DNA of 51,077 nt from Candidatus Micrarchaeota archaeon (GTDB taxonomy: Archaea; Micrarchaeota; Micrarchaeia; Anstonellales; Bilamarchaeaceae). A program made the translations under genes and the position numbers. The notes under the pieces were generated by a model, which ran no database searches, was not told where the DNA came from, and was given only the letters and a program-made list of their open reading frames with translations. The stretch lies in the NCBI GenBank assembly GCA_043809425.1, contig JAZDDV010000014.1, positions 1 through 51,077 on the forward strand. Direction: 5' to 3'. Of the stretch, positions 7,686-50,788 are shown in pieces; the first letter of the stretch is position 1, and each line of letters opens with the position of its first letter.

Positions 7686-8258
7686 GTGAGCAAAATGGAT
7701 GCGATATTAGCTTCGTTAAGAAAATCTGACCGCGCTGCCTTTAGGACAAGGGAGTATGCCGGCCTCCTGGGAAAGCGCAGCTATGCCCGCCTAGTCCTGC
7801 ACCGGTTAAAGAAGAAAGGAGAGATAATGCGCGTACGAAACGGCTGGTGGGCGTTCAGCGATTCAATTCCGGAAGCCATAGCATGCGAAATATCAGCTCC
7901 TGCTTACGTATCATTCCATTCTGCGCTCTTTCTTCATGGCCTTACGACTCAGACTCCTAGAAATGTCCAGCTTGCAGTCACAAGAAATGCAAGAAAATAT
8001 AGGATTTCAGGGATTGAAGTCAGGGAATACAAAATAGGGAAAATGCAATTCGGGGATTTCTACCGCAAGGATTCAGTACTGCTTGCCAATCCTGAGAAGG
8101 CATTTGCCGACTGCCTGGAACTGCCCAGGTCCTGTCCGGACATCATCCTTCAGGAAGCTGCAGGAAGCGTTAATCTCGGAAAGGTGAAAACTTTTCTTGT
8201 TTCAAAAGCAGCCCTGAAGAGGCTGCAAAAGGTGATGGCGTATGTTAAACAGAAATGA
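7686..8258 (+). CDS. AbiEi-family antitoxin / transcriptional regulator
   Basis: wHTH N-terminus (LHRLKKKGEIMRVRNGW), PAYVSFHSALFLHGL and ANPEKAFADCL motifs. Confidence 0.85.
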   Translation: MSKMDAILASLRKSDRAAFRTREYAGLLGKRSYARLVLHRLKKKGEIMRVRNGWWAFSDSIPEAIACEISAPAYVSFHSALFLHGLTTQTPRNVQLAVTRNARKYRISGIEVREYKIGKMQFGDFYRKDSVLLANPEKAFADCLELPRSCPDIILQEAAGSVNLGKVKTFLVSKAALKRLQKVMAYVKQK

Positions 8259-8997
8259 GCTGGTGCGCTACGGCCCACCCGGGTTCCATGATGCACAAAA
8301 GGAAAAGGACTATGCGCAGCACTGGATGCTTTCTTTCCTGTCCCGTGCAGGCTTTGGTGCAGTATTCAAGGGCGGGACAGCACTTCAGAAAGTATACGGG
8401 CTGCCGAGGTATTCAGAAGACCTGGATTTTACGCTTAACGACGCAACTGAGCCGGACTATGAGGCCCTGGCAGCTTTCCTTGATTCAGGCGGTTTTTCCG
8501 GGCTAAACTGGAAAAAGGAAACTGATGAACGTGCTGTAAAAGCCAGGCTGCGTTTCCGCGGCCCTCTTTACAACGGCTCGGCCATAAGTGAGGGCGTGAT
8601 CAGACTGAAAATGAGCAGACGGGAGAAAACCATCCTTGAGCCGGCAGTGGCGATGATAACGCCGCCTTACCCGGACCTGCTGCCCTACCAATTCAGGGTC
8701 ATGGACAAAAATGAGATGGCTACAGAGAAAGTAAGAGCAATCATGACAAGGACTTCGGCAAGGGATTTGTTTGATCTTTATTTCCTCTTCCATCAGAAAG
8801 CCGGGTTGAAGATGGATGTGGTCACTGCAAAACTTGGGTACTACGGCCTTTCCTTCGATTACAGGACATTTGAGAAAAAGGTTGAAGAGCTGAAGGCCGT
8901 GTGGAAAAAGGAGATGACGGCCCTTACGTCCAATCCGGTTGAATACGAAACGGCAGCTAAAGCAGCCCTGGCAGCAGTTAAGAAAGACCTTTCGTGA
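8242..8997 (+). CDS. AbiEii/AbiGii-family nucleotidyltransferase toxin
   Basis: EKDY, FKGGTAL, RYSEDLDF, EKVRA and RDLFDL motifs. Confidence 0.9.
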   Translation: MLNRNELVRYGPPGFHDAQKEKDYAQHWMLSFLSRAGFGAVFKGGTALQKVYGLPRYSEDLDFTLNDATEPDYEALAAFLDSGGFSGLNWKKETDERAVKARLRFRGPLYNGSAISEGVIRLKMSRREKTILEPAVAMITPPYPDLLPYQFRVMDKNEMATEKVRAIMTRTSARDLFDLYFLFHQKAGLKMDVVTAKLGYYGLSFDYRTFEKKVEELKAVWKKEMTALTSNPVEYETAAKAALAAVKKDLS

Positions 8998-9194
8998 ATT
9001 TATTCAGGAGTGAGCCAGGTTGCGCACCTGCTTTCGTTGAATGCCGCTCAACGAATTAAAGCAATAAACCTTACTAAAGTTAAACTCTAGTTTAGGATTA
9101 GTAAGGATTCGACGGAGTGTCTTTTCGCCTCTAACTTTCCGCGTTTCTTGATAATCCGAACGTTTTGTGGGATATATAGAAAGCATCCCTTGTA

Positions 9195-9225
9195 CAACTA
9201 CTAATTTGACATTCATTAGTAGTTG
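9195..9225. promoter_or_regulatory. palindrome CAACTACTAAT-9nt-ATTAGTAGTTG, related to the two elements upstream of fic
   Basis: Perfect 11-bp inverted repeat; 9181-9221 is near-identical to 10812-10852. Confidence 0.7.
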
Positions 9226-9267
9226 CCAAAAGAGAATAGCTGATGCTAATCTTTAATTTAAAAAAAC

Positions 9268-9299
9268 AAAATTAGAAGAAATGAAAGAGAAATGCAGCG
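9268..9299 (-). repeat. duplicate of the 23S rRNA trailer (32 bp exact)
   Basis: AAAATTAGAAGAAATGAAAGAGAAATGCAGCG is identical to 10975-11006. Confidence 0.9.
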
Positions 9300-9302
9300 A
9301 AT

Positions 9303-9405
9303 GTTGAGCCATCGGCTCAACTGATGAGCTTGCCTTTTGAGCAAGCTCACGATGTTGGAGCCGCTTCAGGCGACTCAACAGTTGAGCTTGTTCCGCAAGC
9401 TCAGC
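9303..9405. repeat. cluster of four related hairpins (TGAGC...GCTCA core)
   Basis: Stems at 9303-9321, 9325-9349, 9353-9380 (imperfect) and 9381-9405. Confidence 0.8.
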
Positions 9406-9475
9406 ATGGTGAGAGCGAGTTTGGAATAAACCTTTAGTGACTGCAGACTGAACAGCTCGCTTGTGCTTACTGCTT
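9406..9475 (-). repeat. 70-bp duplicate of the 23S rRNA 3' end and processing-stem arm
   Basis: 68/70 identical to 11008-11077; supplies the fic stop codon. Confidence 0.93.
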
Positions 9476-10810
9476 TGGGCTGTTAAACGCACCGGCGTGC
9501 ATGCATTTGTCCTTATCCAACCTGAAGATAAACTGTTTTCCTTTAGAGAAGGTTTGTAGATAACCCTGTTTTACCAAGCCCAAAAGGTCTGTTCTTGCAG
9601 TTTCATAGGTAATATGGTAACGTTCTTGCATTTCTAGTATAGTCATAGGCCGTTCGTCTTTGCTCATGCTGATAAGTATGTCAGCCTGACGGAAATTCAA
9701 TTTGGGGTTTTGCTGTATAATCTCAAACATCTTCCTATTTTCAGCCTTGGTTTTAGAGATGTAGTTTTCGAATGACGTCACGGCAATGTCAAGCGCGCGT
9801 AAATTAAATTTTACAAAATAGGTAACATCGTTATTGTCTGTTTCAGAGTAGAGATACGCGCGTGCATACTGGGCAGACGCATTTTTTATAGCTGTGGATA
9901 CCGCGACATATTCGAGATAATCATACTTTTGCGCCATCAGGTACCAGTAGAACAGTGCTCTCGCGGTCCGCCCGTTTCCATCATTGAAGGGATGGATATA
10001 ACCAATCATATAGTGGAGTACAATTGCCTTGACAAAGGGATGTAGGTAATAGCTGTCAGAGTCGGCGTTATTCACGAAATTACAAACTTGTTCCAGTAAC
10101 TGATTGATTTTTTTGTAGTCAGGCGGATCATAAACGATCTGATCTTCACCTTTGGCGTATACCTTCACCTCATTATCCGTTCTAAACGTTCCTTCGTATT
10201 CTTTATTTTCAAGGGTATCTTTAGTGATTTTCCTGTGAATTTCCTTAATGAAACCTAATGTTAATTTCTGGTTCGTCACCACATTCTCTTTGACATACAT
10301 CATGGTAACGTAGTTATTCACTATCATCTGCTCCGAATGATTGCGCGGCTTCCTGTTTTCCCTTAGCATTTTTTTGGCAGCTACCCGGCTTGTAGCTGCG
10401 CCCTCCAATTGACTGGAGGCGATTGCTTCCTCCATCAATGAATTTACAAGGTATTTTTTCTGCAGTTCTGGCCCCGGCATCTGGGCTTCCAGACCGATTT
10501 TACCACCTACACGTATATCCAAATCATGAAGCGCTTTCTCAATTTGAGGCGTCTGAACGTATTGTAGTGTTACTCCGTTGAGTTTAATTGGCCTATTGCT
10601 GAATCCTCTAAAAAATTTAATATAGCTCCACAACAGTTTAAGATCGACTCCCTTGAACCTATCGTCGACTTGTAATTCATCCCAGTGCAGATAATTGGTA
10701 TTAACTATGCTAAAATAATGTTTAAGCCCATCAAGAGCATTAATATCTGGATTTTGTATGAATAACTGTCTGATTTCCTCTTCGGAAGGGGGTTTTTTAG
10801 GAATTCTCAT
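9467..10810 (-). CDS. Fic-domain protein with inhibitory helix and C-terminal wHTH
   Basis: Canonical HPFNDGNGRTAR motif; SSQLEG inhibitory motif; C-terminal ITYETARTDLLGLVKQGYL wHTH. ATG at 10810 preferred over TTG at 10828. Confidence 0.92.
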   Translation of the reverse strand: MRIPKKPPSEEEIRQLFIQNPDINALDGLKHYFSIVNTNYLHWDELQVDDRFKGVDLKLLWSYIKFFRGFSNRPIKLNGVTLQYVQTPQIEKALHDLDIRVGGKIGLEAQMPGPELQKKYLVNSLMEEAIASSQLEGAATSRVAAKKMLRENRKPRNHSEQMIVNNYVTMMYVKENVVTNQKLTLGFIKEIHRKITKDTLENKEYEGTFRTDNEVKVYAKGEDQIVYDPPDYKKINQLLEQVCNFVNNADSDSYYLHPFVKAIVLHYMIGYIHPFNDGNGRTARALFYWYLMAQKYDYLEYVAVSTAIKNASAQYARAYLYSETDNNDVTYFVKFNLRALDIAVTSFENYISKTKAENRKMFEIIQQNPKLNFRQADILISMSKDERPMTILEMQERYHITYETARTDLLGLVKQGYLQTFSKGKQFIFRLDKDKCMHAGAFNSPKQ

Positions 10811-10825
10811 GAAGCATGCCTCGAA

Positions 10826-10931
10826 CAACTACTAATTTGGCATTCATTAGTATTCATTAGTAGTTACTTGGGATATTCTATTTATAAACCTATCTACTAA
10901 TTTAGCATTCATTAGTATTCATTAGTAGTTG
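10826..10931. promoter_or_regulatory. fic promoter: TATA (TTTATAAA 10881-10888) flanked by two CTACTAAT...ATTAGTAG palindromic elements
   Basis: Two copies of CTACTAATTTrGCATTCATTAGTATTCATTAGTAGTT at ~10829-10865 and ~10895-10930. Confidence 0.7.
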
Positions 10932-25861: not shown

Positions 25862-28800
25862 TTACTGTTTTTTCATCTTGGAAATAAGTTTGTCCTTTTC
25901 TTTTGAATCCTTAAGCGCAGCCTTAAGCACTTCCACTATGCCCTTGACCGGAATGAGCTGTATTTTGTCTTTCAGTTCCGCAGACAGGTAAACGTCGTGC
26001 TTGTTGGAATCAGGTATGATGGCGCGCTTCATACCGTTTTCAATCGCAGCTTCTATCTTCGCAGTAACGCCGCCTACAGGCAGCACGCTGCCGCGGATAT
26101 CCAGCGAGCCAGTCATGGCGCAATCCTGCAGCACCGGAATGTTTGTAATCGCAGATATGACTGCTACGGCAGTTGCTATTGATGCACTGTCACCCTCAAC
26201 GCCCTCATAGGTCTGCAGAAACTGGATGTGAATGTCTTTTCGCGAAATGTCTGCACCGACGTATTTCTTGATGATGGCTGAGACATTTTCAACTGCTTCC
26301 TTTGCTATTGTCCCCAACTTACCCGTAGCAATGATCTTTCCCTCGCTCTTGGACGCAGGTGGAGTGACTTCTGCCACCATGGGCAGCAGCAATCCGGCGC
26401 GGCTGTCGCCCAACACTGCCAGGCCATTGACCCGGCCTACTTCGCTTCCGCTTGTGAGCACTATCTGATATTCGCGCCTCTGCTCTATTATCCTTGATGC
26501 GAGCTGGCTCTCAACTGGCCTGAATACTGTTTTTGCCTCAAGCACTTCTTTCTTTGTTACTACCTGCAATCCTTTGCTGCGGGCAGTGTCGCCTGCTGCG
26601 CGGACCAGGCCGCCCAGTTCTCTAAGATTAAGCGTGAATTTCTTCCTGCGGCCAGACATGCGTCTTGCCTCTTCAACTATTTCGTCCACTGCATCCATCA
26701 AAAAGTGCGGAATTTTGCCGTCTTTCTTCACTTCCTGCGCTATGAACTGAATAAGCTTTGCCTCATTTGCCGGCGTGTCGTCCATGCTGTCTTCGACGTA
26801 AATCTCATAGCCGGCGCCTCTAATGCGCGAACGGAGAGCAGGATGAATCTTCTGCATGTCTGGCAGATTGCCCGCAGCAACTAGCACGAAATCAGAAGGC
26901 ACTGCCTGGGATTTTACCAGCGCGCCTGAACTCATTTCACTCTGGCCCGTAATGGTATATTTCTTTTCCTGCATTGCCGTAAGCAGCTCCTGCTGCCAAT
27001 TAAGCTTTAGCGATGCGATTTCATCTATGAATAGCACGCCCTTGTTTGCCCGATGGATTGCTCCTGCTTCAACACGCAGATGGGCCGGCGTACCGAGTCC
27101 TCCCGAATTATGGGTGAGGACATTATTGACAAGATAGTTGCCTGTTTCGGTGGTGAGATTATAGACATAACCGGAATAGTTTTTCTTTTTTATGCTCGTT
27201 ATCTTATCGAAAGAATACGAACCATCTGAAATATTCTTCAATCTGAAGAGGTCTGGACAATTCGTATGGGTCAGCAGCTTAAGACAGATAGAAGAGAGAA
27301 ATTGTCTGGTAAGGTTTTGAGACGAGCTCAAGCCAGGTTTGAGGGCATAGTAGGCATCATGCACCTTTGTCTGGCTTAGACCGGTTTTTCCGCGAATTTG
27401 TTCAAGAAATTCAAATGAAATTGGGACCTCATCATCAAATGCAACATGCGTATTCTTTGTTGATTCTAGATATCCCTTAAGATTATTTTTATGGTATGGA
27501 TTGATCGTTTTCTCATAATATTTTGAAGCAAATTCATAATTATTAAACAGCACAAATTTCTGAAGAGTCTTTTTTTCTTTTCCAAAGCCCGGGTCAATTC
27601 TTCCCTTAATCTTTGCTCTCACGCCTACTTTCAAAAATAAGGGAACAAAATCGTCAATAAGCTCTTTTGAAAAGAGCTCAAACTGGCCTTGCTTATTGAC
27701 ATAACCATCTAGGGACATGTAACTAGAGATGAAATGCGATATCTTTTCCTTATCAAGATCAAAGATGAAAGGCGGTATAGACTTGCGGTTATTTTTCTTA
27801 ACGCCCATCTCGATTAGTTTTTTTACTAGGCTTGATGAATTAACATTTAGTATCGTCGCACCGCGGTACACTCTTTTTTTGTAATTGAAATTGTTCGCTT
27901 TAAGGCAGCGTTCGATTTCATCGATTTTGAATTGTCTCTTTAACTTAAAACCTACCGTTCTTGGCCCAAAATAGCCATCCGCAAGAAGATAAGCGACAAA
28001 CGTTATGAAATTCAGATCACTACTGGTTGTCTTACAAATGGGTAATCTATAGGGTAAAACCAAAGATGCATCTTGGTCTATTCTTTCAGCTTCCATATAC
28101 CCAATCGTCCCATCCGGTTTTATGATAGCTAATGGATGGTTCGGAGTAACACGGATTTTATGACCTCTCCGAGTTTCTATTTCGTATATTTGCCCTTCAA
28201 ATTTTCTTTTATATACTTTAGATACCTCTGAAGAGGTATAACAATATCGATCATCGTATCCACCGAGAATTTCAAATCTCTCTTCAGGTTTAAGTTCCTT
28301 TTCGCCTTCGCTTAAAAATTGGTCAACAAGCTCGCTTATTCTCACTGGTTTCCCATTTTTCAGATTAATAATTTCGTCTCCTGGAATACATTGTAACGGA
28401 TCATGTTTAACATCACCGAGCAAAGCGCCTGCGCGCGTGCCTGTTGCATCAACAAACGGTGCGGCATGCTTGCCCGTATTGTCCACCAGCAGCTTCGGGT
28501 CTTTTGTTTCAACAGGCATGAGCCGCCTGCCGATGCCTGCCGTTGCATTGGAAATAAGATAAAGAAAACCAAGGCCAATCACACTGGCAACTACGAACCA
28601 TTTTGCATTGTCTGAAATATTAAGCATGAAAACCACTGCATAGAGAATTACCCCGAGCAGCAGCACGATTAAAATCGGATTAAGCCCCTTGGTAACTGAT
28701 TCTGCCTCGCCTTTGAAGGACACTATTCTCCGGCCAAGGCCAGTGCCGCCGGCCAATCTGCCGCCTGGCAGCGTCTTCATCCGCTTTGCGTCTTCCTTGG

Positions 28801-29143
28801 AATAATATTTCTGCAAATCCTTGTTCTTTGAAACATAATCGTGAGTCGGATAGGTAGGCACTATGCGCACCTGCGGCTGGTTTTCATCATTCGGATTAGG
28901 ATAAACAAGCACGTCTTCCAGGTCCTCTGCAGGCATAAGCTCTGCCATGGCCTGGGCCATCATTGATTTGCCTGTACCCGGCGTGCCGATAAGCAGCACG
29001 TTTCTTTTCTGCTTTGCCGCTTTCTTCACGATTTCCACTGCCGAGTCCTGGCCGATTATCTGGTCTATGAGCTTTTCCGGGACTTTTACGTCTGCCGTGC
29101 TGGTTATGCTTGTGATTCTTGCCTTGTCCATTAATCCCACCAA
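25862..29143 (-). CDS. lonB: archaeal Lon protease (LonB) precursor containing an intein
   Basis: Walker A GTPGTGKS, two TM helices, FIDEI, catalytic GDSASI and GGVTAK. Confidence 0.95.
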   Translation of the reverse strand: MVGLMDKARITSITSTADVKVPEKLIDQIIGQDSAVEIVKKAAKQKRNVLLIGTPGTGKSMMAQAMAELMPAEDLEDVLVYPNPNDENQPQVRIVPTYPTHDYVSKNKDLQKYYSKEDAKRMKTLPGGRLAGGTGLGRRIVSFKGEAESVTKGLNPILIVLLLGVILYAVVFMLNISDNAKWFVVASVIGLGFLYLISNATAGIGRRLMPVETKDPKLLVDNTGKHAAPFVDATGTRAGALLGDVKHDPLQCIPGDEIINLKNGKPVRISELVDQFLSEGEKELKPEERFEILGGYDDRYCYTSSEVSKVYKRKFEGQIYEIETRRGHKIRVTPNHPLAIIKPDGTIGYMEAERIDQDASLVLPYRLPICKTTSSDLNFITFVAYLLADGYFGPRTVGFKLKRQFKIDEIERCLKANNFNYKKRVYRGATILNVNSSSLVKKLIEMGVKKNNRKSIPPFIFDLDKEKISHFISSYMSLDGYVNKQGQFELFSKELIDDFVPLFLKVGVRAKIKGRIDPGFGKEKKTLQKFVLFNNYEFASKYYEKTINPYHKNNLKGYLESTKNTHVAFDDEVPISFEFLEQIRGKTGLSQTKVHDAYYALKPGLSSSQNLTRQFLSSICLKLLTHTNCPDLFRLKNISDGSYSFDKITSIKKKNYSGYVYNLTTETGNYLVNNVLTHNSGGLGTPAHLRVEAGAIHRANKGVLFIDEIASLKLNWQQELLTAMQEKKYTITGQSEMSSGALVKSQAVPSDFVLVAAGNLPDMQKIHPALRSRIRGAGYEIYVEDSMDDTPANEAKLIQFIAQEVKKDGKIPHFLMDAVDEIVEEARRMSGRRKKFTLNLRELGGLVRAAGDTARSKGLQVVTKKEVLEAKTVFRPVESQLASRIIEQRREYQIVLTSGSEVGRVNGLAVLGDSRAGLLLPMVAEVTPPASKSEGKIIATGKLGTIAKEAVENVSAIIKKYVGADISRKDIHIQFLQTYEGVEGDSASIATAVAVISAITNIPVLQDCAMTGSLDIRGSVLPVGGVTAKIEAAIENGMKRAIIPDSNKHDVYLSAELKDKIQLIPVKGIVEVLKAALKDSKEKDKLISKMKKQ
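27107..28390 (-). mobile_element. intein with LAGLIDADG homing endonuclease (428 aa)
   Basis: Inserted at HDPLQ|C...THN|SGG; block B VTPNHP; AYLLADG and SYMSLDG motifs; AT-rich relative to the exteins. Confidence 0.95.
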
Positions 29144-39813: not shown

Positions 39814-40143
39814 TTACTTAAGAAGAGAGACTCCAGCAGCCAGCAGCTCTTTCTTGGCAAGTTTCTTCTTTTTCAGCGACTCGCCTTCCTTCTTTGCCTT
39901 TTCCAGCAAGTTGCTTACGTCTCTTTCTATGGACTCGCGGCCCTCGGCCAGCTTTTTGTTCTTGAATTCCGTCGCTTCTTCGCCCATTTTTGACTTCTCT
40001 TCGGAAATTTTCTCGCGCGCATTGCGCAGGATTTTTTCGGCTTTTTCTTTCGCTTCTGCAATTAGACGGTCATGCTTCTCTTCCGTCGACCGTATTTCAT
40101 CAACGGTCTTCATTAAAACTGACTGACCCGGATTTTTTTCCAT
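39814..40143 (-). CDS. atpH: A-type ATP synthase subunit H (G-like peripheral stalk)
   Basis: Charged helix IAEAKEKAEKIL; first gene of the operon; start uncertain. Confidence 0.75.
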   Translation of the reverse strand: MEKNPGQSVLMKTVDEIRSTEEKHDRLIAEAKEKAEKILRNAREKISEEKSKMGEEATEFKNKKLAEGRESIERDVSNLLEKAKKEGESLKKKKLAKKELLAAGVSLLK

Positions 40144-40260
40144 GCTAACACCAGAACAAGTTGACTGATTCTTATACAATATGAAATGGTTTAAAAAGCT
40201 TATGCCTGCTGCCTGTTCTACGGCGTTGAGAATGCAGGATTACTGGAAAAAGATGACTGA

Positions 40261-40354
40261 AGATAGGGAAAATAAATCAGATGAAAAAGGAAAAATAATT
40301 AGAAATAAAAAATAGGAAAAAAAGGTAGAAAAGAAAAAGAAATAAAAAGAAAAA
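40261..40354 (-). terminator. oligo-T terminator tract downstream of the array (similar tracts follow each paralog and rpl15e)
   Basis: Long T-rich runs on the minus strand directly after the stop; also 42290-42339, 44210-44240, 46175-46196, 48165-48200 and 50145-50203. Confidence 0.6.
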
Positions 40355-42229
40355 TCAGCTGACCTGCACCTTCACGAATGCACCTGCATTGTACAGCGAC
40401 GGGTCATCGAAAGTCTGCAACACTTTCACCTTGCACGTGCCAAACACCGGGTCAGTGTAAGACGCTGTTGAGCCAGTCGTAATCTTGTCCTGAATCAATA
40501 TCAGGCCGTCCCAAGTGTTTTCGCGCACCGAGAAGATTGCTTTGTGCGTATCAGTCTCGAAACCTTCAATTCGCACAAACCAGATTGGACCGACCGGACA
40601 CTGTATAGCAGGGTAGAACCGGAAGTCAAGCATAGTAGGTTGTGCAGGAGGTGTCGCCGTAGTAGGCGTGATGTTTATTTTCGCCCACGAATTGCCAGCT
40701 GGATTATAGTAAGCCGGCATGGTCTCGTACACCTTTATCTGGTAGCGGTTGCCAGTGGAAATATTCCTGACTGCAGACCCGCCCTGCTTTATCTTTTCGT
40801 TGTTAAGCATTTGTGCTGCAACCTCATCTGCCAAATGCAGGCTCAAGTCATGGCTTGGAGTTTCGATACCATCATAAACCGCACTAATGTTTCCGTCACC
40901 CGAAAAGACAACTCCTCCGCCCGAATAGAGAACCTCTGCTGGCGGCAGTGCAGGGCTTATTGCGGCTGTCGGCACAGCGGGCTGCACCACGACCTTGGCC
41001 CAGGCGGCATTCGGATCTCCGTGCCCCAGGTATGAGTAACCGGTAGCGGTCTGCACCACTTTTATGCTGTATTTGCCGCCAGATGCATCTGGCAGGACAT
41101 TCCTTACGAAAGTCTGCCCTTCTCCGATTTTTTCCGTATAGATCGAATCACTTGTATTTCCGATTATAAGGTAGGCCTTGCGCGTATCTTTCTCAAAGTC
41201 GCGCAGGAGCATGACCAGCTCCGCACTCCCATAGAAGCTATTTAAGTAAACCAGGTCGTAGCTTGGGCTCTCGGTCGTTGCCACGTTCGGCACTATGTCA
41301 AACTTCGCCCAGGCGCCTTGGTAGTTCCCACTTAGAGCTGCTGCGCCTGCAGCCATCTTGATTAATTTTATTTGGTAGCGGTAGCCGCCGTTGCCTGAGC
41401 GCACCAGCGTCTGCCCTTCTTTTATCTTGTCATTTGCAAGCACATTACCGAGGCCATCTGTCAATGTGACGATGGCGCTGCGAGTTTCTGTTTCCAGGTC
41501 TGAAAGATATACGCGGGTGATAGCACCCCCAATATCATATTCTGTATAGTCCTGTACATAGACAACTTCGTAGTCATCGAAGTTCTGGCCGGAATTCGCC
41601 GGTTCAATCTTTATCTTAACTTTTCCCTGCGACCAGTCGTAGATTGGAAGGGAAGTCTGCATGACTGTTACCTTATAGAATTTTCCACTGAAGTTGCGGA
41701 CAACATTTGCTCCTTCCTTGACTTTTTCAATGCCATACGGCGTGCTGATTATCGCATCACGTGTTCCGACTTCAATGTCGTCAACGCTCACACCAACATT
41801 CCTGTCATTAATATAATAAATGAATAAATTTCGCGTAGTGAGCGACACGGTCACGGCGCTAACCTTAAGAGTTATGTTCGCCCAGCGGACGCCGCTTGCC
41901 GAGCTTGCCGCGGTTTCATGGACAGTTATGGAAATGTCACGGCCTGCAACGGTTTTCGTGACGGTCTTTCCCTCGGGAATCTCATCGAATGAAAGCATGT
42001 TGCCGTTATAAGACACGAGCGTTATCAGCGCGTTGTGCGTTGTCTGCTCAATATCATTCAGCACCAGCGTCAACGGCTCCACGTTATCATAGGGAAAGGT
42101 GGTGAAATTTTCACTCACGTTGACAATCTGGTTCATGCTGCCAGTGTAATAATAATCAGTTGGTGCTGCCGATGTAATCGAAACAGCCAAAATCCCAAAT
42201 ACCAAAACTAAGAATAGGTTTACTTTCAT
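40355..42229 (-). CDS. secreted six-repeat surface (S-layer-like) protein, paralog 1
   Basis: Signal peptide; six ~95-aa repeats D.E..T..A...KI.EG...Y.IKV.QT...WAK; many NxS/T sequons. Confidence 0.75.
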   Translation of the reverse strand: MKVNLFLVLVFGILAVSITSAAPTDYYYTGSMNQIVNVSENFTTFPYDNVEPLTLVLNDIEQTTHNALITLVSYNGNMLSFDEIPEGKTVTKTVAGRDISITVHETAASSASGVRWANITLKVSAVTVSLTTRNLFIYYINDRNVGVSVDDIEVGTRDAIISTPYGIEKVKEGANVVRNFSGKFYKVTVMQTSLPIYDWSQGKVKIKIEPANSGQNFDDYEVVYVQDYTEYDIGGAITRVYLSDLETETRSAIVTLTDGLGNVLANDKIKEGQTLVRSGNGGYRYQIKLIKMAAGAAALSGNYQGAWAKFDIVPNVATTESPSYDLVYLNSFYGSAELVMLLRDFEKDTRKAYLIIGNTSDSIYTEKIGEGQTFVRNVLPDASGGKYSIKVVQTATGYSYLGHGDPNAAWAKVVVQPAVPTAAISPALPPAEVLYSGGGVVFSGDGNISAVYDGIETPSHDLSLHLADEVAAQMLNNEKIKQGGSAVRNISTGNRYQIKVYETMPAYYNPAGNSWAKINITPTTATPPAQPTMLDFRFYPAIQCPVGPIWFVRIEGFETDTHKAIFSVRENTWDGLILIQDKITTGSTASYTDPVFGTCKVKVLQTFDDPSLYNAGAFVKVQVS

Positions 42230-42339
42230 ATAATCTCCCCTCTGGATTCAGCTAAGAAGAGGAGATTTAAAAGTCTTTCCGGCTGCGGAAAACAAGAGAA
42301 AAAAACAACAACGGAAAATAAAAATAAGAAAAAGAAAAA

Positions 42340-44160
42340 TCAGCTGACCTGCAGCCTTGCCCAGATGCTCTCTGCCGCGTAGGTGTAGCCGCCGGTTGTT
42401 TCCATGACCTTTATCCTGCACAGCGTGCCGCCAGCAGGAGAGATCGTAAATGTCTGGCCAACAGGAATCTTTGCCCTTTCATAAATGCTGCCACCCGGGT
42501 CAAGCACTGAAATGGCTGCTGCACCGTCTGCTTCTTCCATATCGTCCAGCCGGACATTGTATCCGGTCACAGGACAGGTAAGATACCGCTCATTTACAAG
42601 AGTAAGATTTCCCTGAACTGGTGTGACTCCGGAAGTTACCGGCTTTACGTTAAGCCTTGCCCACTTTGCGCCGAAGGTGTAGCCTGCTCCGGTCTGCAGC
42701 ACGCTTATCTGGTATTTGTTACCGTTGACATTGCGGACTACTGAACTGCCTTCCTTGACAAGGTCGCGGGACACTACCGAACCGTTTCCGGTATCGTAAA
42801 CTACAATTATTGCACCGCGAGTTTTGCTGTCCAAATCAATCAACCTTACGTTCTTGCTGCCATCAACTGGATAGAACTCGCCCTGGTTAAGCACGAAAGA
42901 GGTGTTGATAATCGGCGTAGCAGCTGCATTCGTAGGCGTTACAAGAACCTTTGCCCACTTTGCAGCGTAGGTGTAGCCTGCTGCTGTCTGCACTATCTTA
43001 ATAGAGTATTTTGTGCCGCTGACGTTGCGGACTACGCTTTGGCTTTCTGCGATCTTGTCCTTGTAGATAATGTTATCCGCTGGGTCAAGTATGGAAACCA
43101 ACGCCTTTCCTGTGCCTGATTCAAGATCATCAAGTTTCACCTTGAATCCATTGCTGAGAATATAGGATTCTCCCTGATTGAGCGTTGCGTTGATTGGGAT
43201 GACTGGAGCTGCTGTGGTTGTCGGGTCAACAGCAAACTTCACCCACTTCGCACCGAAAGTATAACCAGGCGCTGTCTGATAAACAGTTATTTTGAATTTC
43301 TGGCCGCCTATGTCTTTTATGATTGGTTTTCCTTCTGACACCTTTACCTTGAGAAGAACGTTGTCGTTTGCGTCAAGCACGCTGAAAACAGCGCTCTTGG
43401 TTCTTGGCTCCAGGTCGTCAAGCTTCAACTTGTAGGTACTGAACGGATAATTTTCCCCTTGATTGAGAACGTTATACAAGGCAGCAGGAGAGCCTGAATT
43501 AAGCTTTTCTATGCTGAGTTTTACGCGCTTTGCTCCGAACTGATAGCCTGCAGATGTCTGCAGAACCTTTATCCTATAAAGAGAACCGCTTACGTTGCGG
43601 ACTACATTCTGGCCTTCAGCGAGTTTATCTTTGGAAAGTACCGCGCCAAAGCAGTCTTCGGTACTTAGAATTGCGCTTCTTGTGCCGACTTCCAGGTCGT
43701 TAACGCGCACACACGCTGTAGAACCTGGTACGTTATAAACTGCAATTGAGTCGACATCAACAACAACAGAAACTACCTGTACGCTGATAGTCGCCCAGGA
43801 AGCGTTCTCGGCGAATTCATAGCCTGCCGCAGTCTTGCCGACAGTTATTTTATATTCTGTCGAACCCACTGTGCGGGTAATGCTTTTCCCTTCTGCGATT
43901 TCTTCCTGCAGAGGAACAAGGCTGCCAGGCGCTATAATAGAAATAAGCGCGCTGTGCGATGTCGCTTCCACATCGTCAAGCCGTAGGACTGTATTACATG
44001 GGTCGCATGGAACACTTCCGACATAGTGGTCATCCAGCGTCAGGTTTCCGCCTATATTCACCTGCTCGGTCTTATTACCGACCCATGGCTCGTAGTCCTG
44101 TGCGCAGACCATGCCAAACAGCAATCCCAATACTAATGTAAAGATTATGTTGCCTCTCAT
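42340..44160 (-). CDS. secreted six-repeat surface (S-layer-like) protein, paralog 2
   Basis: Signal peptide; six repeats, mostly ending T(A/S/G)(A/P)GY.(F/Y)..KW. Confidence 0.75.
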   Translation of the reverse strand: MRGNIIFTLVLGLLFGMVCAQDYEPWVGNKTEQVNIGGNLTLDDHYVGSVPCDPCNTVLRLDDVEATSHSALISIIAPGSLVPLQEEIAEGKSITRTVGSTEYKITVGKTAAGYEFAENASWATISVQVVSVVVDVDSIAVYNVPGSTACVRVNDLEVGTRSAILSTEDCFGAVLSKDKLAEGQNVVRNVSGSLYRIKVLQTSAGYQFGAKRVKLSIEKLNSGSPAALYNVLNQGENYPFSTYKLKLDDLEPRTKSAVFSVLDANDNVLLKVKVSEGKPIIKDIGGQKFKITVYQTAPGYTFGAKWVKFAVDPTTTAAPVIPINATLNQGESYILSNGFKVKLDDLESGTGKALVSILDPADNIIYKDKIAESQSVVRNVSGTKYSIKIVQTAAGYTYAAKWAKVLVTPTNAAATPIINTSFVLNQGEFYPVDGSKNVRLIDLDSKTRGAIIVVYDTGNGSVVSRDLVKEGSSVVRNVNGNKYQISVLQTGAGYTFGAKWARLNVKPVTSGVTPVQGNLTLVNERYLTCPVTGYNVRLDDMEEADGAAAISVLDPGGSIYERAKIPVGQTFTISPAGGTLCRIKVMETTGGYTYAAESIWARLQVS

Positions 44161-44240
44161 GGTTAGAATTAGGTGTGAAAACGTTTAAAAAGCCTTCTGA
44201 AATGTGGATGAAAGAGAAAAAATAAGAAAAAAGAAAAAAA

Positions 44241-46130
44241 CTAGTTGACTACCATCTTCGCCCATACGCCAACTATGTAAAATGGTTCATCGGCAGTCTG
44301 GACCACCTTGACAGTGCAGTTTCCGTTCACCGGATCGCGGTATGTCACAGTGCCTCCTACTGCAACCTTATCCTGGAATAGCGTGGTAAAGCCAAAATCG
44401 CGCAGCGATATTATCGCCTTGTGCGATATTGGTTCAACGCCGTCCAGAAAGACAAGCATGCTGGCGTTCTGGCATGATATGGGAGTTGGATAAGATATTG
44501 GCCACATGGTAGTCACAGAATAGTTGACGCTCTCGGCAGCGGTGGTATTCACGAATGTTACCTTCGCCCAGCCCAGGTAAACGTTCTTATAATAGCCAGG
44601 CGCGCTTTCCAGCAGCTTTAGCGCGTATTTGTTGCCGGCGATTTTTCTTACCACCGTACTGCCCACTTTCACTTTGTCGACAGATACGCGCGGTGATGGT
44701 ATGGACTGCACATAGAATGTGGCGTCATGGCTTACTGGCTCTATGCCCTCAAAATATGCCCATACATTGAGATCGGGTGAAAGGACGCGCGTATCAAAAT
44801 TGAGCACAGTGGCGTTGAGAGGCGCCGGGCTGACTGCTGCGCTAGTTGGCGCTATGACCATTTTTGCCCAGGCAGCAGAGGGATTACTGGTAAGGTCATA
44901 CGAATAACCTGCAGCTGTCTGCATTACTTTTATGCTGTATTTCGTTCCGCTTACATTGCGCACAATAGTCTGGCCTTCGCCGATTTTTTCATAGTAAAGC
45001 GTATCAGTCGAATTTGAGATATTGACCAATGCTTTTCTTGTATCCTGTTCCAGGTTCAGCAGTTGGACATATATGCCACCCGTATTAGCCACACTGCCTA
45101 TCGAAGTAGCATTATAGTACGGGCTTTCCGCTGCTGTCACGTTCGGTACAATGTCAAGCTTGGCCCATGAACCAATCTCGAAGCCCACTGCCGGCATGCC
45201 TGCACCTGCTGCCGTTTTAATAACCTTTATCTGGTAGCGGTAGTTGCCTACGCCTTTGCGCACGAGTATCTGATTTTCCTTGACTTTGTCCAGTGCAAGG
45301 ACAGAGCCGTTCTCATCTGACACCTCGATTATCGCACTCTTGGTTTCTGTTTCCAAATCTATCAGGCGTATGTATGTTACCGCACCGCTAAGGTTAGCCA
45401 TCATAGTCGGCGAACCGCCGTTAAGAAGAAGAGAATAGTTGTCAAAACCAGTTCCGCCAGATGAAACACGCTCTACCTTCAGCTTAGTATTACTCGAAGA
45501 CCAGTAGTTTGGCGAAGCCAAGCTAGTCTGCATGACGGTTATCTTGTAGGACTGGTTATTTATTTTTCTCACTATATTGCCCCCTTCCTTGATCTTATCA
45601 GGGCGCTCACTGCTGTCAGTAAGTATCCAGATAACCGCATCACGGCTGCCTACTTCGATATCCACGGGACACACATAAAAGTCAGGTGGAACTGTAGGAT
45701 AGCCCGGATTTGGATAGTTCACAACATAGATAAAACAAGAGCTTTGGTTTACGTTTCTGGTGAGCGCTAGCGTCTTGAGCGTGATATTGGCCCAGCGGTT
45801 CGTGCCAGTAGAAACGCTGCTATCAGCAACCTTGTTAACAGTTATGCTGATGTCGTTGCCTGCGATGGTCCGGGTTATTGTCCTGCCTTCTGCGATTTCC
45901 TCCTTTGCCAAAATTGCACCGGTTGCGCCGTCAGATAGCGTAATCAACGCATTGTGCGTTGTCGGCTCCAGATCAGTAAGGTACAGGTCCAAGCTGCCGT
46001 CGTCCAACGTTAGTGACAAACCGTCAACAGCCACTATGCCATTCGCTGTCTCGAAAACCGGCGAAGCTGCTGCGCACAATGAAATCGCTAAAATCCCAAA
46101 TACCAGAATTAAGAACAGGTTGCTTCTCAT
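44241..46130 (-). CDS. secreted six-repeat surface (S-layer-like) protein, paralog 3
   Basis: Same repeat scaffold and signal peptide. Confidence 0.75.
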   Translation of the reverse strand: MRSNLFLILVFGILAISLCAAASPVFETANGIVAVDGLSLTLDDGSLDLYLTDLEPTTHNALITLSDGATGAILAKEEIAEGRTITRTIAGNDISITVNKVADSSVSTGTNRWANITLKTLALTRNVNQSSCFIYVVNYPNPGYPTVPPDFYVCPVDIEVGSRDAVIWILTDSSERPDKIKEGGNIVRKINNQSYKITVMQTSLASPNYWSSSNTKLKVERVSSGGTGFDNYSLLLNGGSPTMMANLSGAVTYIRLIDLETETKSAIIEVSDENGSVLALDKVKENQILVRKGVGNYRYQIKVIKTAAGAGMPAVGFEIGSWAKLDIVPNVTAAESPYYNATSIGSVANTGGIYVQLLNLEQDTRKALVNISNSTDTLYYEKIGEGQTIVRNVSGTKYSIKVMQTAAGYSYDLTSNPSAAWAKMVIAPTSAAVSPAPLNATVLNFDTRVLSPDLNVWAYFEGIEPVSHDATFYVQSIPSPRVSVDKVKVGSTVVRKIAGNKYALKLLESAPGYYKNVYLGWAKVTFVNTTAAESVNYSVTTMWPISYPTPISCQNASMLVFLDGVEPISHKAIISLRDFGFTTLFQDKVAVGGTVTYRDPVNGNCTVKVVQTADEPFYIVGVWAKMVVN

Positions 46131-46196
46131 GGATTTGCCTATGAAGACGATATTTAAAAGTCTTTCGAGAAAGCTAAAAAAGAAGAAAAGAAAAAA

Positions 46197-48119
46197 CTAG
46201 CTGACGACAAGCTTGGCCCACGCGCCGGCGGGGAAGTAGGTGTAGTCGTCAAAAGTCTGCACTACCTTCACTGTGCAGTTGGCGAAGCCAGGGAAATTGT
46301 ATTTTTTCGTGCTGCCTATGGCGAGCTTGTCCTGGTATATCAAGCCACCGCCGAAAGAGGAATTGTACACATTGATTATCGGCTTATGCGTTCCGGTTTC
46401 AAGGCCGAAGAACACAATCACCAGATCTCCGCTGGGACAGTACGCTGGAGTACCCATAAAGCCAATCGTGGTATAGTTGACTGCCGCCGCAGCAGTTGAG
46501 TTTTGCATTCCTATCTTTGCCCAGCCAAGAACCGGCACGCCGGCCCCGTTGGTATAATAACCAGGCGCAGTCTGATACACGCTTATTTTGTATCTGTTGC
46601 CAACTATCCCTCTCACCACTGAGCTTCCGGCCTTCACAGAATCAAAAAACGCCGGGGGCCCAGCCATCAGATCAAGTGTTTCGATCGAGGCTTCGTGGCT
46701 TACTGGCGCAAGACCATAGACGTACGCGACCATGGTAGGAGTAAACGGGTCGTTAACTATGTAATCGCCCAACGGAACCGCAGTGTAGTTTATAACCGGC
46801 GGACTGATTGCAGCTGTTGGCAACGCCGGAGCCAGAATGAACTTTGCCCAGGCCTTATACGCAAAGGGGGCAACATCGTACGAGTAACCGGTTGCAACCT
46901 GCGCAACTTTTATGCTGTACTTCGTGCCGCTTACGTTGCGAACCATGGTCTGCCCTTCTGCGATGGTCTCGTTGTAAAGCAGTAGCGGACCAGCTGTTGT
47001 ATAAATCTCCACCATCGCCTTGCGCGTGTCCCGCTCGAAATTGACAAGCTTCACACGCATGGAGCCTATCGATGCGCTGTCGTAGATAAATGTTACCGGG
47101 GAAGTCGCGGTCAGCGGATTGCTGCTTGGCGCAGTCACGTTTAATTTAGCCCACACGCCAACCGGGTAGCCAACTGAAGACGCGCCGCCGCCGGCAGCTA
47201 CCTGGATATTCTTTATGGTATAGAGATAACCGCCAACGCCTACCACCACGATTGTCTGTCCTTCTTTTACTTTCTCATTGGCGATTACGGTGCCGTTTTC
47301 ATCGAGCATGAAAAATATCGCGCTGCGCGTTTCCTTTTCGATGTCTGCTAAACGGATGGTAGTGTAGGCGCCGCTTATGTTATATTCCAACAGATCAAAC
47401 CAGGATAAGAAGTTATAGTTATTCGGGTTTGTGCCAGACGTCGCAGGCTCTATTTTTATTTTGGCGCGCCCGTTCATCCAGTTGGTCGAAGTATAGAAGG
47501 GCACTGCTGCTGGATAAGTCTGCATTACGGTTATCTTGTAGTACTTGCCACTTATGTTCCGCGTTATGCTCCCGCCGGATTTTATCTTCTCGTGATAGGC
47601 AGGAGGGTTGAAAGGATCAAGAATCTGAATGATTGCATCATTGGTGCCGGCTTCGATATCATCAAGATATACCCAGAAAACAGCAGGACTGGCGCTATCA
47701 TTGTAATAAAAATTCGGCGATACCGAAATAGGCACTGTGATTGCGTTTATGCTGAGGGTGACATTCGCCCACGGCGGCAGGGCAGTAAACGAAGGCTCTG
47801 CAGTCTTGTGCACCGTAATGGAGATATCTGCTCCGGATAGGGCCTTGGTGAGCGTCTGCCCTTCTTTTACCTCATCCATGGAAAGGATGGTATCGCAGGA
47901 ATCTTTTATTGTCATAAGCGCGCTGTGCGTAGTCGGATTGATGCCATTCAGATAGACTACGAAATTACCGTCAGCGCTTGCAATGGAAGTTCCGCCCGTA
48001 TCTATGATGCCGTTGACTTTTTCGATTGAATTCGGCGACGGCAACGGACAGCTAATTGCATAGCATGCAGAAATCGCTAAAATCCCAAATATCAGAATCA
48101 AGAATAGGTTGCTTCTCAT
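46197..48119 (-). CDS. secreted six-repeat surface (S-layer-like) protein, paralog 4
   Basis: Same repeat scaffold and signal peptide. Confidence 0.75.
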   Translation of the reverse strand: MRSNLFLILIFGILAISACYAISCPLPSPNSIEKVNGIIDTGGTSIASADGNFVVYLNGINPTTHSALMTIKDSCDTILSMDEVKEGQTLTKALSGADISITVHKTAEPSFTALPPWANVTLSINAITVPISVSPNFYYNDSASPAVFWVYLDDIEAGTNDAIIQILDPFNPPAYHEKIKSGGSITRNISGKYYKITVMQTYPAAVPFYTSTNWMNGRAKIKIEPATSGTNPNNYNFLSWFDLLEYNISGAYTTIRLADIEKETRSAIFFMLDENGTVIANEKVKEGQTIVVVGVGGYLYTIKNIQVAAGGGASSVGYPVGVWAKLNVTAPSSNPLTATSPVTFIYDSASIGSMRVKLVNFERDTRKAMVEIYTTAGPLLLYNETIAEGQTMVRNVSGTKYSIKVAQVATGYSYDVAPFAYKAWAKFILAPALPTAAISPPVINYTAVPLGDYIVNDPFTPTMVAYVYGLAPVSHEASIETLDLMAGPPAFFDSVKAGSSVVRGIVGNRYKISVYQTAPGYYTNGAGVPVLGWAKIGMQNSTAAAAVNYTTIGFMGTPAYCPSGDLVIVFFGLETGTHKPIINVYNSSFGGGLIYQDKLAIGSTKKYNFPGFANCTVKVVQTFDDYTYFPAGAWAKLVVS

Positions 48120-48200
48120 GGATTTGCATAAGAAGACGATATTTAAAAGTCTTTCTGGAACGGTTGAAAAATAAGTAAAAAAATAAGAAAAAAGAAAAAA

Positions 48201-50081
48201 CTAGTTGACTACCATCTTTGCCCAGATGCCTGGCGGGAAAAACGGATCGTCTGCGGTCTGTACGACTTTTACGCTGCAGTTCCCGTAGTCCTCAATGCGG
48301 TAAAGCGTAGTGGCGCCAACTGCAACCTTGTCATACCGCAGGATATCTCCGCTTGAGGCATTGCGCAGCGAAATCAGCGGCTTGCGCGTAACCGTCTCAA
48401 GACCATCAAGCGAAACGTTCATCTCCCCGTTTGCGCATGTGATCTGCGGCATTCCAGCTGGACCGGTTGCCGTATAGTTAACCGTCTGTGCCGCAGTAGT
48501 GGTCTGTATGCTCATCTTTGCCCAGCTACTCGGGCCAGAGTAGTAAGGCGGAGCAGTAGATTGCACCTTTATCAGGTAATTCTGGCTTCCAACGCGCCTT
48601 ACAACAGAACCGCCTGCCTTGACCTTGTCGATGGATATCAACATTGGCGGACCACTTGTGTCATAGACATACAGTGTCGCGTCATGGGACACCGGCTCCA
48701 TACCGTAAAGCAATATTGCCAGATTAAAGTCATCTGAGTACAGTACCCCAGGGAAGAAAACAGTAGTGTAGTTCGCAGTCGACGTTATTGCGGCAGTCGA
48801 CGGCTTCAACTCGAACTTTGCCCAGGTTGCATTTTCATTCCCAGTATAGCTATACGAATAGCCGGTAGCAGCACTAACCAGCTTTATGCTGTATTTGCCG
48901 GTGCTTGTGTTTCTGACAATCGTCTGGCCTTCTGCGATGGTCTCATTGCCGATGTTGTCCATGCCGTCATACAGGATGACCAGCGCTTTGCGCGTGTCCT
49001 TTTCGAAATTAGCCAGGACAACAGTCAACGAACCGCGACTGACACCGCCGTCAAGTTGTGCAAGCTGGCAATCCGGAAGAACACACACCGGACTTTCTGC
49101 GGCCGTGGTACCAGGCACAATTTGAAATTTAGCCCACGCACCTTGGTTGTTCCCCTGGGCAGGCATGCCTGAGCCAGCGCCTATCTTTATTGTCTTTATC
49201 TGGAATTTATAGCCGCCTGCGCCTGTGCGCACCAGCGTCTGCCCTTCTTTTATTTTCTCCTGCGCGATGATGTTATCGCTGCTATCAAGCAATGAGATTA
49301 TCGCACTTCTTGTTTCTGTTTCCAAATCATCAAGTCTGATCTTGGTTATCGCACCGCCGCCCATATCATACTCGAGCGGAGAGTAGTTAACCCACGTTAG
49401 ATTGTAGATATTGGTATCAAAATCCGTGCCTGAATTGACCCGCTCTATTTTTAGCTTTGCCCTGTTCCTATTCCATAGGGATAGTGAAACTGGAGAAACC
49501 TGCATCACGGTTATTTTATAGGCATTGCCGCAGATATTTCTCGTAATGCTTCCGCCTTCTTTAACTTTCTCATAACCCCAATCGCCGCACATGGAATCTA
49601 TAGCGAGCAATGCATCGCCTGTTGTAACTTCAACGTCCTTAAACATCACAATAACCGGTACTATGCTATAGTCGTAAACACCAAGGTCGTCTACGGTTTT
49701 TGTAGAAGAAAGTACTGCAAGCGTTATGTTAGCCCACGGAACAGGACCTGTTTCCCAGCTTGGCTGCGCAGTCTTATGCACAGTAATAGTAATATCAGCA
49801 CCGGAAAGTGTCCTGGAAAGCGACTTGCCTTCTGCGATGTCCTCCACGGCAATTAAATCCCCGTTATAGCTGTAGACGCTGACAAGTGCACTGTGCGTCT
49901 TCGGGTCTATCCCATCCAAAGCAAGCGTGAAGATGTTATCCGTTGTCGTCAACCCAGAACCGACTTGCAATACCGAATTAATCTTCTCTATATAACTCGG
50001 CGTAGTAGGCGGTGGAGCTGCTGCGCATAATGAAATCGCTAAAATCCCAAATACCAGAACTAAGAATAGGTTTACTTTCAT
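48201..50081 (-). CDS. secreted six-repeat surface (S-layer-like) protein, paralog 5
   Basis: Same repeat scaffold and signal peptide. Confidence 0.75.
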   Translation of the reverse strand: MKVNLFLVLVFGILAISLCAAAPPPTTPSYIEKINSVLQVGSGLTTTDNIFTLALDGIDPKTHSALVSVYSYNGDLIAVEDIAEGKSLSRTLSGADITITVHKTAQPSWETGPVPWANITLAVLSSTKTVDDLGVYDYSIVPVIVMFKDVEVTTGDALLAIDSMCGDWGYEKVKEGGSITRNICGNAYKITVMQVSPVSLSLWNRNRAKLKIERVNSGTDFDTNIYNLTWVNYSPLEYDMGGGAITKIRLDDLETETRSAIISLLDSSDNIIAQEKIKEGQTLVRTGAGGYKFQIKTIKIGAGSGMPAQGNNQGAWAKFQIVPGTTAAESPVCVLPDCQLAQLDGGVSRGSLTVVLANFEKDTRKALVILYDGMDNIGNETIAEGQTIVRNTSTGKYSIKLVSAATGYSYSYTGNENATWAKFELKPSTAAITSTANYTTVFFPGVLYSDDFNLAILLYGMEPVSHDATLYVYDTSGPPMLISIDKVKAGGSVVRRVGSQNYLIKVQSTAPPYYSGPSSWAKMSIQTTTAAQTVNYTATGPAGMPQITCANGEMNVSLDGLETVTRKPLISLRNASSGDILRYDKVAVGATTLYRIEDYGNCSVKVVQTADDPFFPPGIWAKMVVN

Positions 50082-50203
50082 ATTATCTCCTCTCTAATTC
50101 CAGCTAAGAAGAGGAGGTTTAAAATAGTTTCTTTAAAGCTACACGAAAAAACAGCAAAAAACAACTACGAAAGAAATAGAAAAATAAGAAAGAAAAAGAA
50201 AAA

Positions 50204-50788
50204 TTAAAGCAGCGCCCGTGCTGCAGCAGCGCGCCGACCGTGAACTTTGGCAAGCCTGGCATTGTGCAGCTTGTTGCGCCTTTGCTTGTTCATGGTCTTG
50301 CTGTGTGACGGTCTGCCCTTTTGGCCAGCAGACGTTAAACCGCGGAATGCCCTGCCGCGCCTCTTAAGCGAGCTAAGCTCAAGCTTGGTCGGGTCTGCGA
50401 GAATCACTTCGTAATAAGTGTTGTTGCCATCGTCTCCCGCCCAGTAGCTGTTAAGCACTTCCAGGTTCGGGTAGTTGTGATTAACGCGCTGCTCTGCGAT
50501 GCGCTGGTAGGACAGGCCCGGAGGAGTGAATCTGTAATTAGATTTTGCCTTTCTCCCGCCCATGGGCTTCGGCCTTTTGCGGCTGCCGCGCTTAACCCGC
50601 GAACGAACTACGACGTAGCCTATCTTTGCCTTGTAGCCGAGCGTTCTTGCGCGGGTAATGTTCGTTGGCCTTTCTACGCGTTCCACCGGCGGGCTTTTTC
50701 TCCACACGGTTATTCTGCTCCTGTAAACAGGACTCCTTTCTGCATATTCCTTCTGCAGAGTTTCAGCAATGTATTTGTATGCTCCCAT
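50204..50788 (-). CDS. rpl15e: 50S ribosomal protein L15e
   Basis: MGAYKY, RARTLGYKAK, NLEVLNSYW and GRAFRGLTSAG motifs. Confidence 0.96.
   Translation of the reverse strand: MGAYKYIAETLQKEYAERSPVYRSRITVWRKSPPVERVERPTNITRARTLGYKAKIGYVVVRSRVKRGSRKRPKPMGGRKAKSNYRFTPPGLSYQRIAEQRVNHNYPNLEVLNSYWAGDDGNNTYYEVILADPTKLELSSLKRRGRAFRGLTSAGQKGRPSHSKTMNKQRRNKLHNARLAKVHGRRAAAARALL

Follow-up and report, generated by a model that had tools for sequence, protein, structure and literature searches.

Five neighbouring genes on the minus strand of a contig from the tiny symbiotic Candidatus Micrarchaeota archaeon (JAZDDV010000014.1, assembly GCA_043809425.1) raise the question of what a cell does with five exported proteins of the same six-repeat design, four of which have one loop of the repeat rewritten. 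The window analysed is the whole stretch of 51,077 nucleotides, and the array lies at positions 40355 to 50081. Each gene encodes a signal peptide and six modules: g1 (40355..42229, 624 amino acids), g3 (44241..46130, 629), g4 (46197..48119, 640) and g5 (48201..50081, 626) carry rewritten loops, and g2 (42340..44160, 606) has retained the loop type of the S-layer protein (SLP). We found that the repeat is an inserted domain of the Micrarchaeota SLP, a protein with a DUF1608/MSTP-like core. The function of the array is answered more tentatively: the reading we prefer, at slightly less than an even chance, is that the five proteins form an old, fixed family of exported hexavalent binders, one of which would be aimed at self and four of which would have been retargeted.

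A domain of the S-layer protein repeated sixfold

An earlier note, made from the letters alone, had described six beta-rich domains of about 95 amino acids in each of five secreted proteins, and a module profile built in this analysis for repeat detection bore this out by recovering 30/30 repeats, with a domain E-value of 8e-12 or better. The five proteins are 32-48% identical to one another. The AlphaFold2 (AF2) model of g2, built from six sequences, has eight strands per module (pLDDT 79.7), and its pTM of 0.69 hints at an ordered packing of the modules. Searches with g2 gave matches in 53/61 related genomes, mostly through one stretch of about 85 residues within a frame of 900-1000 amino acids; the matched frames carry PF05124, one of them is a named S-layer protein, and a congener copy passes TIGR01564. 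In these PF05124 proteins of ~900-1040 amino acids (SLP_Mh-type; PF05123/PF05124, TIGR01564), the module is a single internal domain at residues ~315-405, to which the best g2 repeat is 41-52% identical. The SLP profile also aligns with the diverged paralogs (hhalign, 97.8%, E 1e-12). The S-layer association guessed in the earlier note is thus stronger than supposed, because the repeat itself is an SLP domain.

In the AF2 model of a congener SLP core (pLDDT 83.5), the module is inserted in the core as eight strands, the first and last of which continue into it. Two Methanosarcina DUF1608 entries were the sole Foldseek matches of this model at E<=1e-3 (SLP core versus DUF1608: Foldseek E 2.7e-5; VIA Z 7.0, root-mean-square deviation (rmsd) 5.6, 205 aligned). 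The SLP core, and perhaps the g2 repeat by itself, is related in fold to the Methanosarcina DUF1608/MSTP protein MA0829 (PDB 3U2G/3U2H): a single repeat aligns with residues 398-499 of 3u2h at Z 6.5 (rmsd 3.6, 80 aligned), with the rows for class II fusion protein domain I and CcmF standing higher, at Z 7-8.4. The class II rows are explained by the resemblance of the DUF1608 fold to viral envelope proteins, noted in a review (PMC5744192). The fold link between module and DUF1608 looks firmer through the SLP core than through the repeat alone. Strand parity in the models would place the termini and the beta2-3, beta4-5 and beta6-7 hairpins at one pole of the module, and the beta1-2, beta3-4, beta5-6 and beta7-8 loops at the opposite pole.

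Micrarchaeota SLPs have been classed as hexagonal and MSTP-like by Johnston et al. (10.1101/2024.05.28.596244), and SLP_Mh was shown by Gfrerer et al. to be abundant and glycosylated (10.1101/2021.04.28.441871). The array proteins resemble SLP_Mh in their signal peptide and their sequons, which number 8, 9, 16, 13 and 11 in g1 to g5. The earlier claim of many sequons holds as a count; measured against shuffled composition, the excess is clear in g3-g5 (p<=0.006) but not in g1 (0.19) or g2 (0.05). The array differs from the SLP in what surrounds the module: no match to the anchor halves PF05123, PF05124 and TIGR01564 was found in any of the five proteins, the MSTP-like core is absent, six modules and short linkers occupy the mature chains, and matches to the SLP are limited to its residues ~315-401. 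The domain is therefore present in six copies instead of one, in proteins of 606-640 amino acids that have neither S_layer_N/S_layer_C anchor nor core. As the earlier note had stated, a hydrophobic C-terminal segment is lacking (0/5) and repeat 6 contains a Cys pair (5/5). Cys19 is present in g2-g5 and absent in g1, and only in g4 does it form a possible lipobox. Methanosarcina has about ten SLP paralogs, one highly expressed and several without a membrane helix (PMC3361143); these paralogs are built of one or two whole DUF1608 units, whereas the array uses one excised subdomain sixfold and gives no PF07752 sequence match.

Other searches added little. Pfam and NCBIfam scans of the five proteins returned nothing above cut-off. 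The search of solved-structure sequences found no match for g2, rows at chance level for the module profile and, for the SLP, one weak row (E 0.11) to 9FSA, described in PMC11410804 as the dimeric anchor. Foldseek with the whole g2 model against the PDB and viral libraries gave only rows of TM ~0.1, and Atlas feature searches no usable match, the nearest structural rows being S-layer clusters below threshold.

The beta7-beta8 loop inside and outside the array

Outside the array the module is widely reused. Among 170 retrieved proteins, 166 hold 1-9 copies: SLPs, lipoprotein-type proteins, a thioredoxin-like fusion (P0038, two modules) and giant exoproteins of 1200-3700 amino acids in which 4-9 SLP modules are interspersed (P0050, P0066, P0083, P0053). 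Without the five array genes, there are 21 proteins with 3 copies, 7 with 4, 2 with 5, 6 with 6, 4 with 7 and 1 with 9, counts on which the idea that modules come in threes is weak. Close relatives of the array are Micrarchaeota surface proteins with 3-7 copies of the same module (P0002, P0049, P0051, P0052, P0055-P0059, P0006 and P0053); they differ from it in being single genes in the loci inspected and in having a loop of standard length, and none is described in the literature searched. P0002 has the six-repeat layout of g2 and its Cys pair in repeat 6, and is 36% identical to it. The source genome (G000) holds three further module-bearing genes. It also encodes a tandem secreted pair (G000:C7:15604-18374) made of repeats from another SLP piece, the Cys-stapled stalk adjoining the anchor, so that SLP parts serve as reused building blocks.

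The part of the module that distinguishes lineages is the beta7-beta8 loop, which is kept within them and differs between them. Across 29 SLPs selected for similarity over the whole protein, this loop is the third most conserved of all 10-residue windows (0.80 versus a mean of 0.45). In 20 more distant SLPs its sequence is different in most, which means that the fold needs no single loop sequence; one loop type is shared throughout an order and by several other families. The loop on accessory proteins is that of the SLP in their own genome, exactly in two genomes (G066, G119) and nearly so in five (G099, G103, G171, G053, G016). In 65 modules drawn from 22 genomes, the loop has an identity of 0.63 to the own SLP and 0.35 to those of other families, and the body 0.36 and 0.24. 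Dropping the 24 modules with a body identity >35% left 41 old accessory modules from 17 genomes, in which the loop is still 0.565 identical to that of the own SLP versus 0.357 when shuffled (body 0.279 versus 0.234); the excess in the best non-loop window was 0.073, against 0.195. With one genome per family (10 families) the values were 0.558 and 0.329, and the eight best-tracking columns all fell in the loop. Since accessory modules match the SLP loop of their own genome, the loop appears to behave as a selected, lineage-specific "self key".

Within the array, g2 stands close to this type: its loops are 0.52-0.98 identical to family SLP loops (body 0.29-0.38), 4/6 have the standard length, and repeat 3 has the exact SLP-type motif APGYTFGAKW (residues 297-306; 43243..43272, minus strand). 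The near-uniform AGY.(F/Y)..KW loop ascribed to g2 is there, with the strict pattern in only 3/6 repeats. The other four proteins depart from it. The standard length of ten is found in 267/294 modules elsewhere, where the longest loop has 13 residues; in g1, g3, g4 and g5, 19 of the 21 loops scored (of 24) are longer, at 11-16 residues, and none of the 21 is canonical. No scored loop retains its Lys (0/21), and conservation also drops at the Asp and Gly of the same pole but not at core residues, in an alignment that is uncertain for long loops. An example is repeat 4 of g4 (46848..46895, minus strand), whose 16 residues have fixed stems and a variable centre. The variable loops quoted in the earlier note were located in g5 repeat 1 and g4 repeats 2, 4 and 5, and its emphasis on this loop proved apt: elsewhere it is under lineage-specific selection, and among the modules retrieved it is lengthened only in these four genes.

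The idea of a hypervariable loop on a fixed scaffold survives in part. Variation among the four proteins is clustered and not even, with a mean pairwise identity of 0.67-0.69 in the beta3-beta4 loop, the beta5-beta6 turn and beta7, but the flagged loop (0.37) is neither the sole nor the most variable element, the beta4-beta5 hairpin being at 0.17 and the beta1-beta2 region at 0.21 (13 columns assigned). Loop lengths are held by position (16, 16, 16 and 16 in repeat 4; 15, 16, 16 and 16 in repeat 3), and loop likeness follows position and not gene (score 29 versus 5). Each repeat position of the four genes forms its own clade with a support of 98-100, and four-fold sites are 31-46% identical, where 25% is expected at saturation. 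Together, the position clades, the loops alike by position and the near-saturated sites point to one six-repeat ancestor with six different loops and an old duplication. The repeats seem never to have swapped position between slots.

What the array proteins may do

In the scenario we prefer, one inserted beta-sandwich module would have been excised from the SLP and then repeated sixfold, giving exported, probably N-glycosylated proteins with six binding sites. The loop would act as the self key by docking into the cell's own S-layer lattice, and g2, by docking in this way, would be a six-valent lattice clip. A six-repeat ancestor would then have given each repeat position its own longer loop before being duplicated to four genes, whose products may now bind non-self targets such as host or neighbour surfaces or foreign S-layers; diversity would have come from gene duplication followed by divergence, and not from a diversifying machinery still at work. 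The most economical reading makes the loop a self key, most likely through contact within the lattice, that has been reused to position proteins on the coat. Bacterial SLH and CWB2 triple repeats and the Cwp paralogs of C. difficile are likewise examples of a shared surface-addressing module reused on many exported proteins. Their modules are helical and anchor the protein from below by binding wall polysaccharide; the array module differs in being beta, in deriving from the lattice-forming part and in having a lineage-tracked loop, and is not known to be homologous to them.

Several observations weigh against this scenario. Lipoprotein-type N-termini are present on several module-bearing proteins and would anchor them with no need of a lattice clip, and six modules that all lack the self key leave no evident means to stay on the cell. 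The tracking is imperfect: the body also follows the own SLP weakly, related genomes do not count as independent cases, and some of the accessory loops fail to follow their SLP, with several at 0.2-0.3. The search profiles include SLP loops and so favour canonical ones. Where residues are shared, four-fold codons are identical more often in the loop (48/104) than in the body (83/274); part of the tracking may therefore reflect codon bias or short patches of gene conversion from the SLP gene. Single diverged loops of standard length occur elsewhere (P0049, 0/6 strict), the opposite-pole beta4-beta5 hairpin varies more than the loop, and a single face for the loops is a prediction from strand parity. 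Finally, g1, g3, g4 and g5 were found in this genome only, which makes their case a one-genome observation.

An alternative is a loop that binds a lineage-specific outside ligand, an own-coat or host glycan, and not the lattice: the SLP module would then be a lectin-like adhesin whose tandem copies add avidity, and the four paralogs lectins with new specificities. Binding modules typically occur as tandem repeats joined to varied cargo, as this module does in 2-9 copies; the loops are rich in aromatic residues (18% Phe, Trp and Tyr, including the terminal Trp, against 9.6% overall), lipoprotein-type carriers exist, and tracking of the own SLP is expected equally. Lectin-like surface proteins have moreover been proposed for host recognition in DPANN archaea (10.1101/2023.10.27.564410). 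One loop type across a whole order and several families is, however, broad for a host-specific ligand, and no lectin came near the top of the fold searches, itself a weak point. We regard this alternative as unlikely, and as the most serious competitor of lattice docking. Of lower probability, to our minds quite unlikely, is a bolder form of the lattice idea, in which the loop would be a lineage-specific address code: proteins with the matching loop would clip onto their own lattice, and this genome would have turned the code outward. One six-valent clip would still fit the own lattice, and the 24 rewritten loops of the other four, also six-valent, would be keys for foreign coats (e.g., MSTP-type host S-layers), which would amount to host recognition by S-layer mimicry.

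The remaining explanations fit less well than the lattice or outside-ligand readings. The four diverged paralogs may have lost the function of the loop, with relaxed selection behind its growth, and now serve as glycosylated decoration of the coat, as spacers or as shed decoys. The joint decay of several conserved residues at the loop end, the greater variability of the hairpins at the other pole and the sequon excess in g3-g5 would agree with such a loss; the loop lengths and stems held per position across four old genes, and the near absence of sequons from the loop (2/57), count against it, and we find this explanation doubtful. A function as the main coat, which the array would replace or co-build in a lineage without a canonical SLP, is improbable. 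The canonical N-/C-terminal anchor region was indeed not found in the source genome, where only a re-anchored derivative was seen, an SLP gene adjoins rpl15e in one congener, and six repeats would fit the six-fold lattice reported for a Micrarchaeon (PMC11329633). The missing SLP is nevertheless uninformative because the assembly has real gaps, with aglB truncated by the end of a contig and the gene beyond its neighbour missing, and SLP genes break contigs in several relatives; the array proteins have no SLP core or anchor, the codon adaptation of their genes is ordinary (28th-47th percentile), and two congeners (G003, G004) also lack the canonical N-terminus and yet have no array. A loss of AglB was considered and rejected, the 3' end of aglB lying at the contig edge.

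The antibody-like repertoire proposed in the earlier note, if taken as active diversification in which a retroelement, cassette recombination or gene conversion makes loop variants, is hardly credible: the tandem array, its fixed stems and variable loop centres (as in diversity-generating retroelements and antigenic-variation cassettes) and a signal-peptide DNA more alike among g1, g3, g4 and g5 (65-89%) than the rest (51-56%) would suit it, but synonymous sites are near saturation, repeat positions are unshuffled, the longest exact run shared between paralogs is 31 nucleotides and lies in the signal peptide, RVT_1 (PF00078) has no match in the 92%-complete, gapped assembly, no recombinase was found among 33 window proteins scanned, no long inverted repeats or recent conversion tracts were detected, and a template scan confined to 40100-50300 found no template/variable pair, its longest repeats being paralog segments 60-85% alike.

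These findings bear on two open questions: how DPANN symbionts recognize their hosts, and by what means proteins with no anchor take their place on an archaeal S-layer. A module of 90 residues with a ten-residue loop that co-varies with the SLP of the lineage would be a small, swappable and expressible handle for both, and the array would offer natural retargeted variants, with g2 beside them as a self-type control. Should the loop prove to have no role in binding, the array would be reduced to an expansion of S-layer-derived glycoproteins in a single genome, a finding of modest significance.

Distribution, expression signals and surroundings

The SLP itself and SLP paralog families were known beforehand; the array adds a variant of S-layer-derived accessory proteins. 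No full-length relative of the diverged genes was found among 175 other genomes of the order, among 1.84 billion representatives (where only P0002 aligns over the full length), in 8000 and 5298 word-sharing candidates or in 106 pattern matches in species genomes. A metagenome scan gave two P0002-type loci from 81 stretches, 18 candidate stretches from viral contigs gave no relative, and tblastn no further copy. We found no paper on the module, its loop or such arrays in the literature searched, which covered few subscription journals.

All five open reading frames are intact despite the near-saturated synonymous sites, and each gene has, as the earlier note claimed, its own putative promoter and terminator: a predicted TATA-like TTTTAAA box 29-43 nucleotides upstream (42266..42272 for g1, 44184..44190 for g2, 46153..46159 for g3, 48142..48148 for g4 and 50118..50124 for g5, all on the minus strand) and, after the stop, a terminator-like run with T in 17/20 positions (40335..40354, minus strand, for g1; 42320-42339, 44221-44240, 46177-46196 and 48181-48200 for g2 to g5). 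Only 14/860 crude gene calls have this combination. Promoter and signal-peptide DNA is 81-85% identical between g1 and g5 (42161-42279 versus 50013-50131) and between g3 and g4 (46081-46194 versus 48070-48183). The leader of g1 and g5 is longer, with a purine-rich site, and g2-g4 appear nearly leaderless. Seven canonical SLP genes (L004, L006, L007, L012, L013, L014, L018) have a GC-rich hairpin (CCGCC...GGCGG-like) just upstream of the ribosome-binding site that the array genes lack.

The array is flanked by rpl15e, encoding ribosomal protein L15e (50204..50788, minus strand), and by the gene that opens the A-type ATP synthase operon (39814..40179, minus strand), subunit H-like by a name taken from its position. 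As rpl15e and this operon are head-to-head neighbours in 6/6 congeners, the array, inserted between them, arrived with a local rearrangement; its GC content and that at third codon positions (GC3) equal those of the flanks.

Elsewhere in the genus, an SLP derivative of 736-805 amino acids (G000:C64:7957-10239, G003:C146, G004:C14) combines core and module with an N-terminus that is lipoprotein-like and has DAG repeats where the SLP has its dimeric anchor. The three genus members that have it are those in which no canonical SLP N-terminus was found, and its full-length form was not seen in G001, G002 and G005, which have the canonical start (G006 was outside the search); it may represent either an S-layer protein with a new anchor or an artefact of assembly. 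A membrane protein at G000:C72:9150-10490 matches S_layer_C (anchor-type) weakly and is a possible membrane partner of the SLP anchor. The window further contains an archaeal LonB protease with an intein (25862-29143) and, at 7686-10828, genes for an AbiEii-type nucleotidyltransferase, for a partner upstream of it and for a Fic-domain protein. Its GC content falls to 0.37 at 10-11 kb, and long open reading frames are few at 10.8-14.2 kb.

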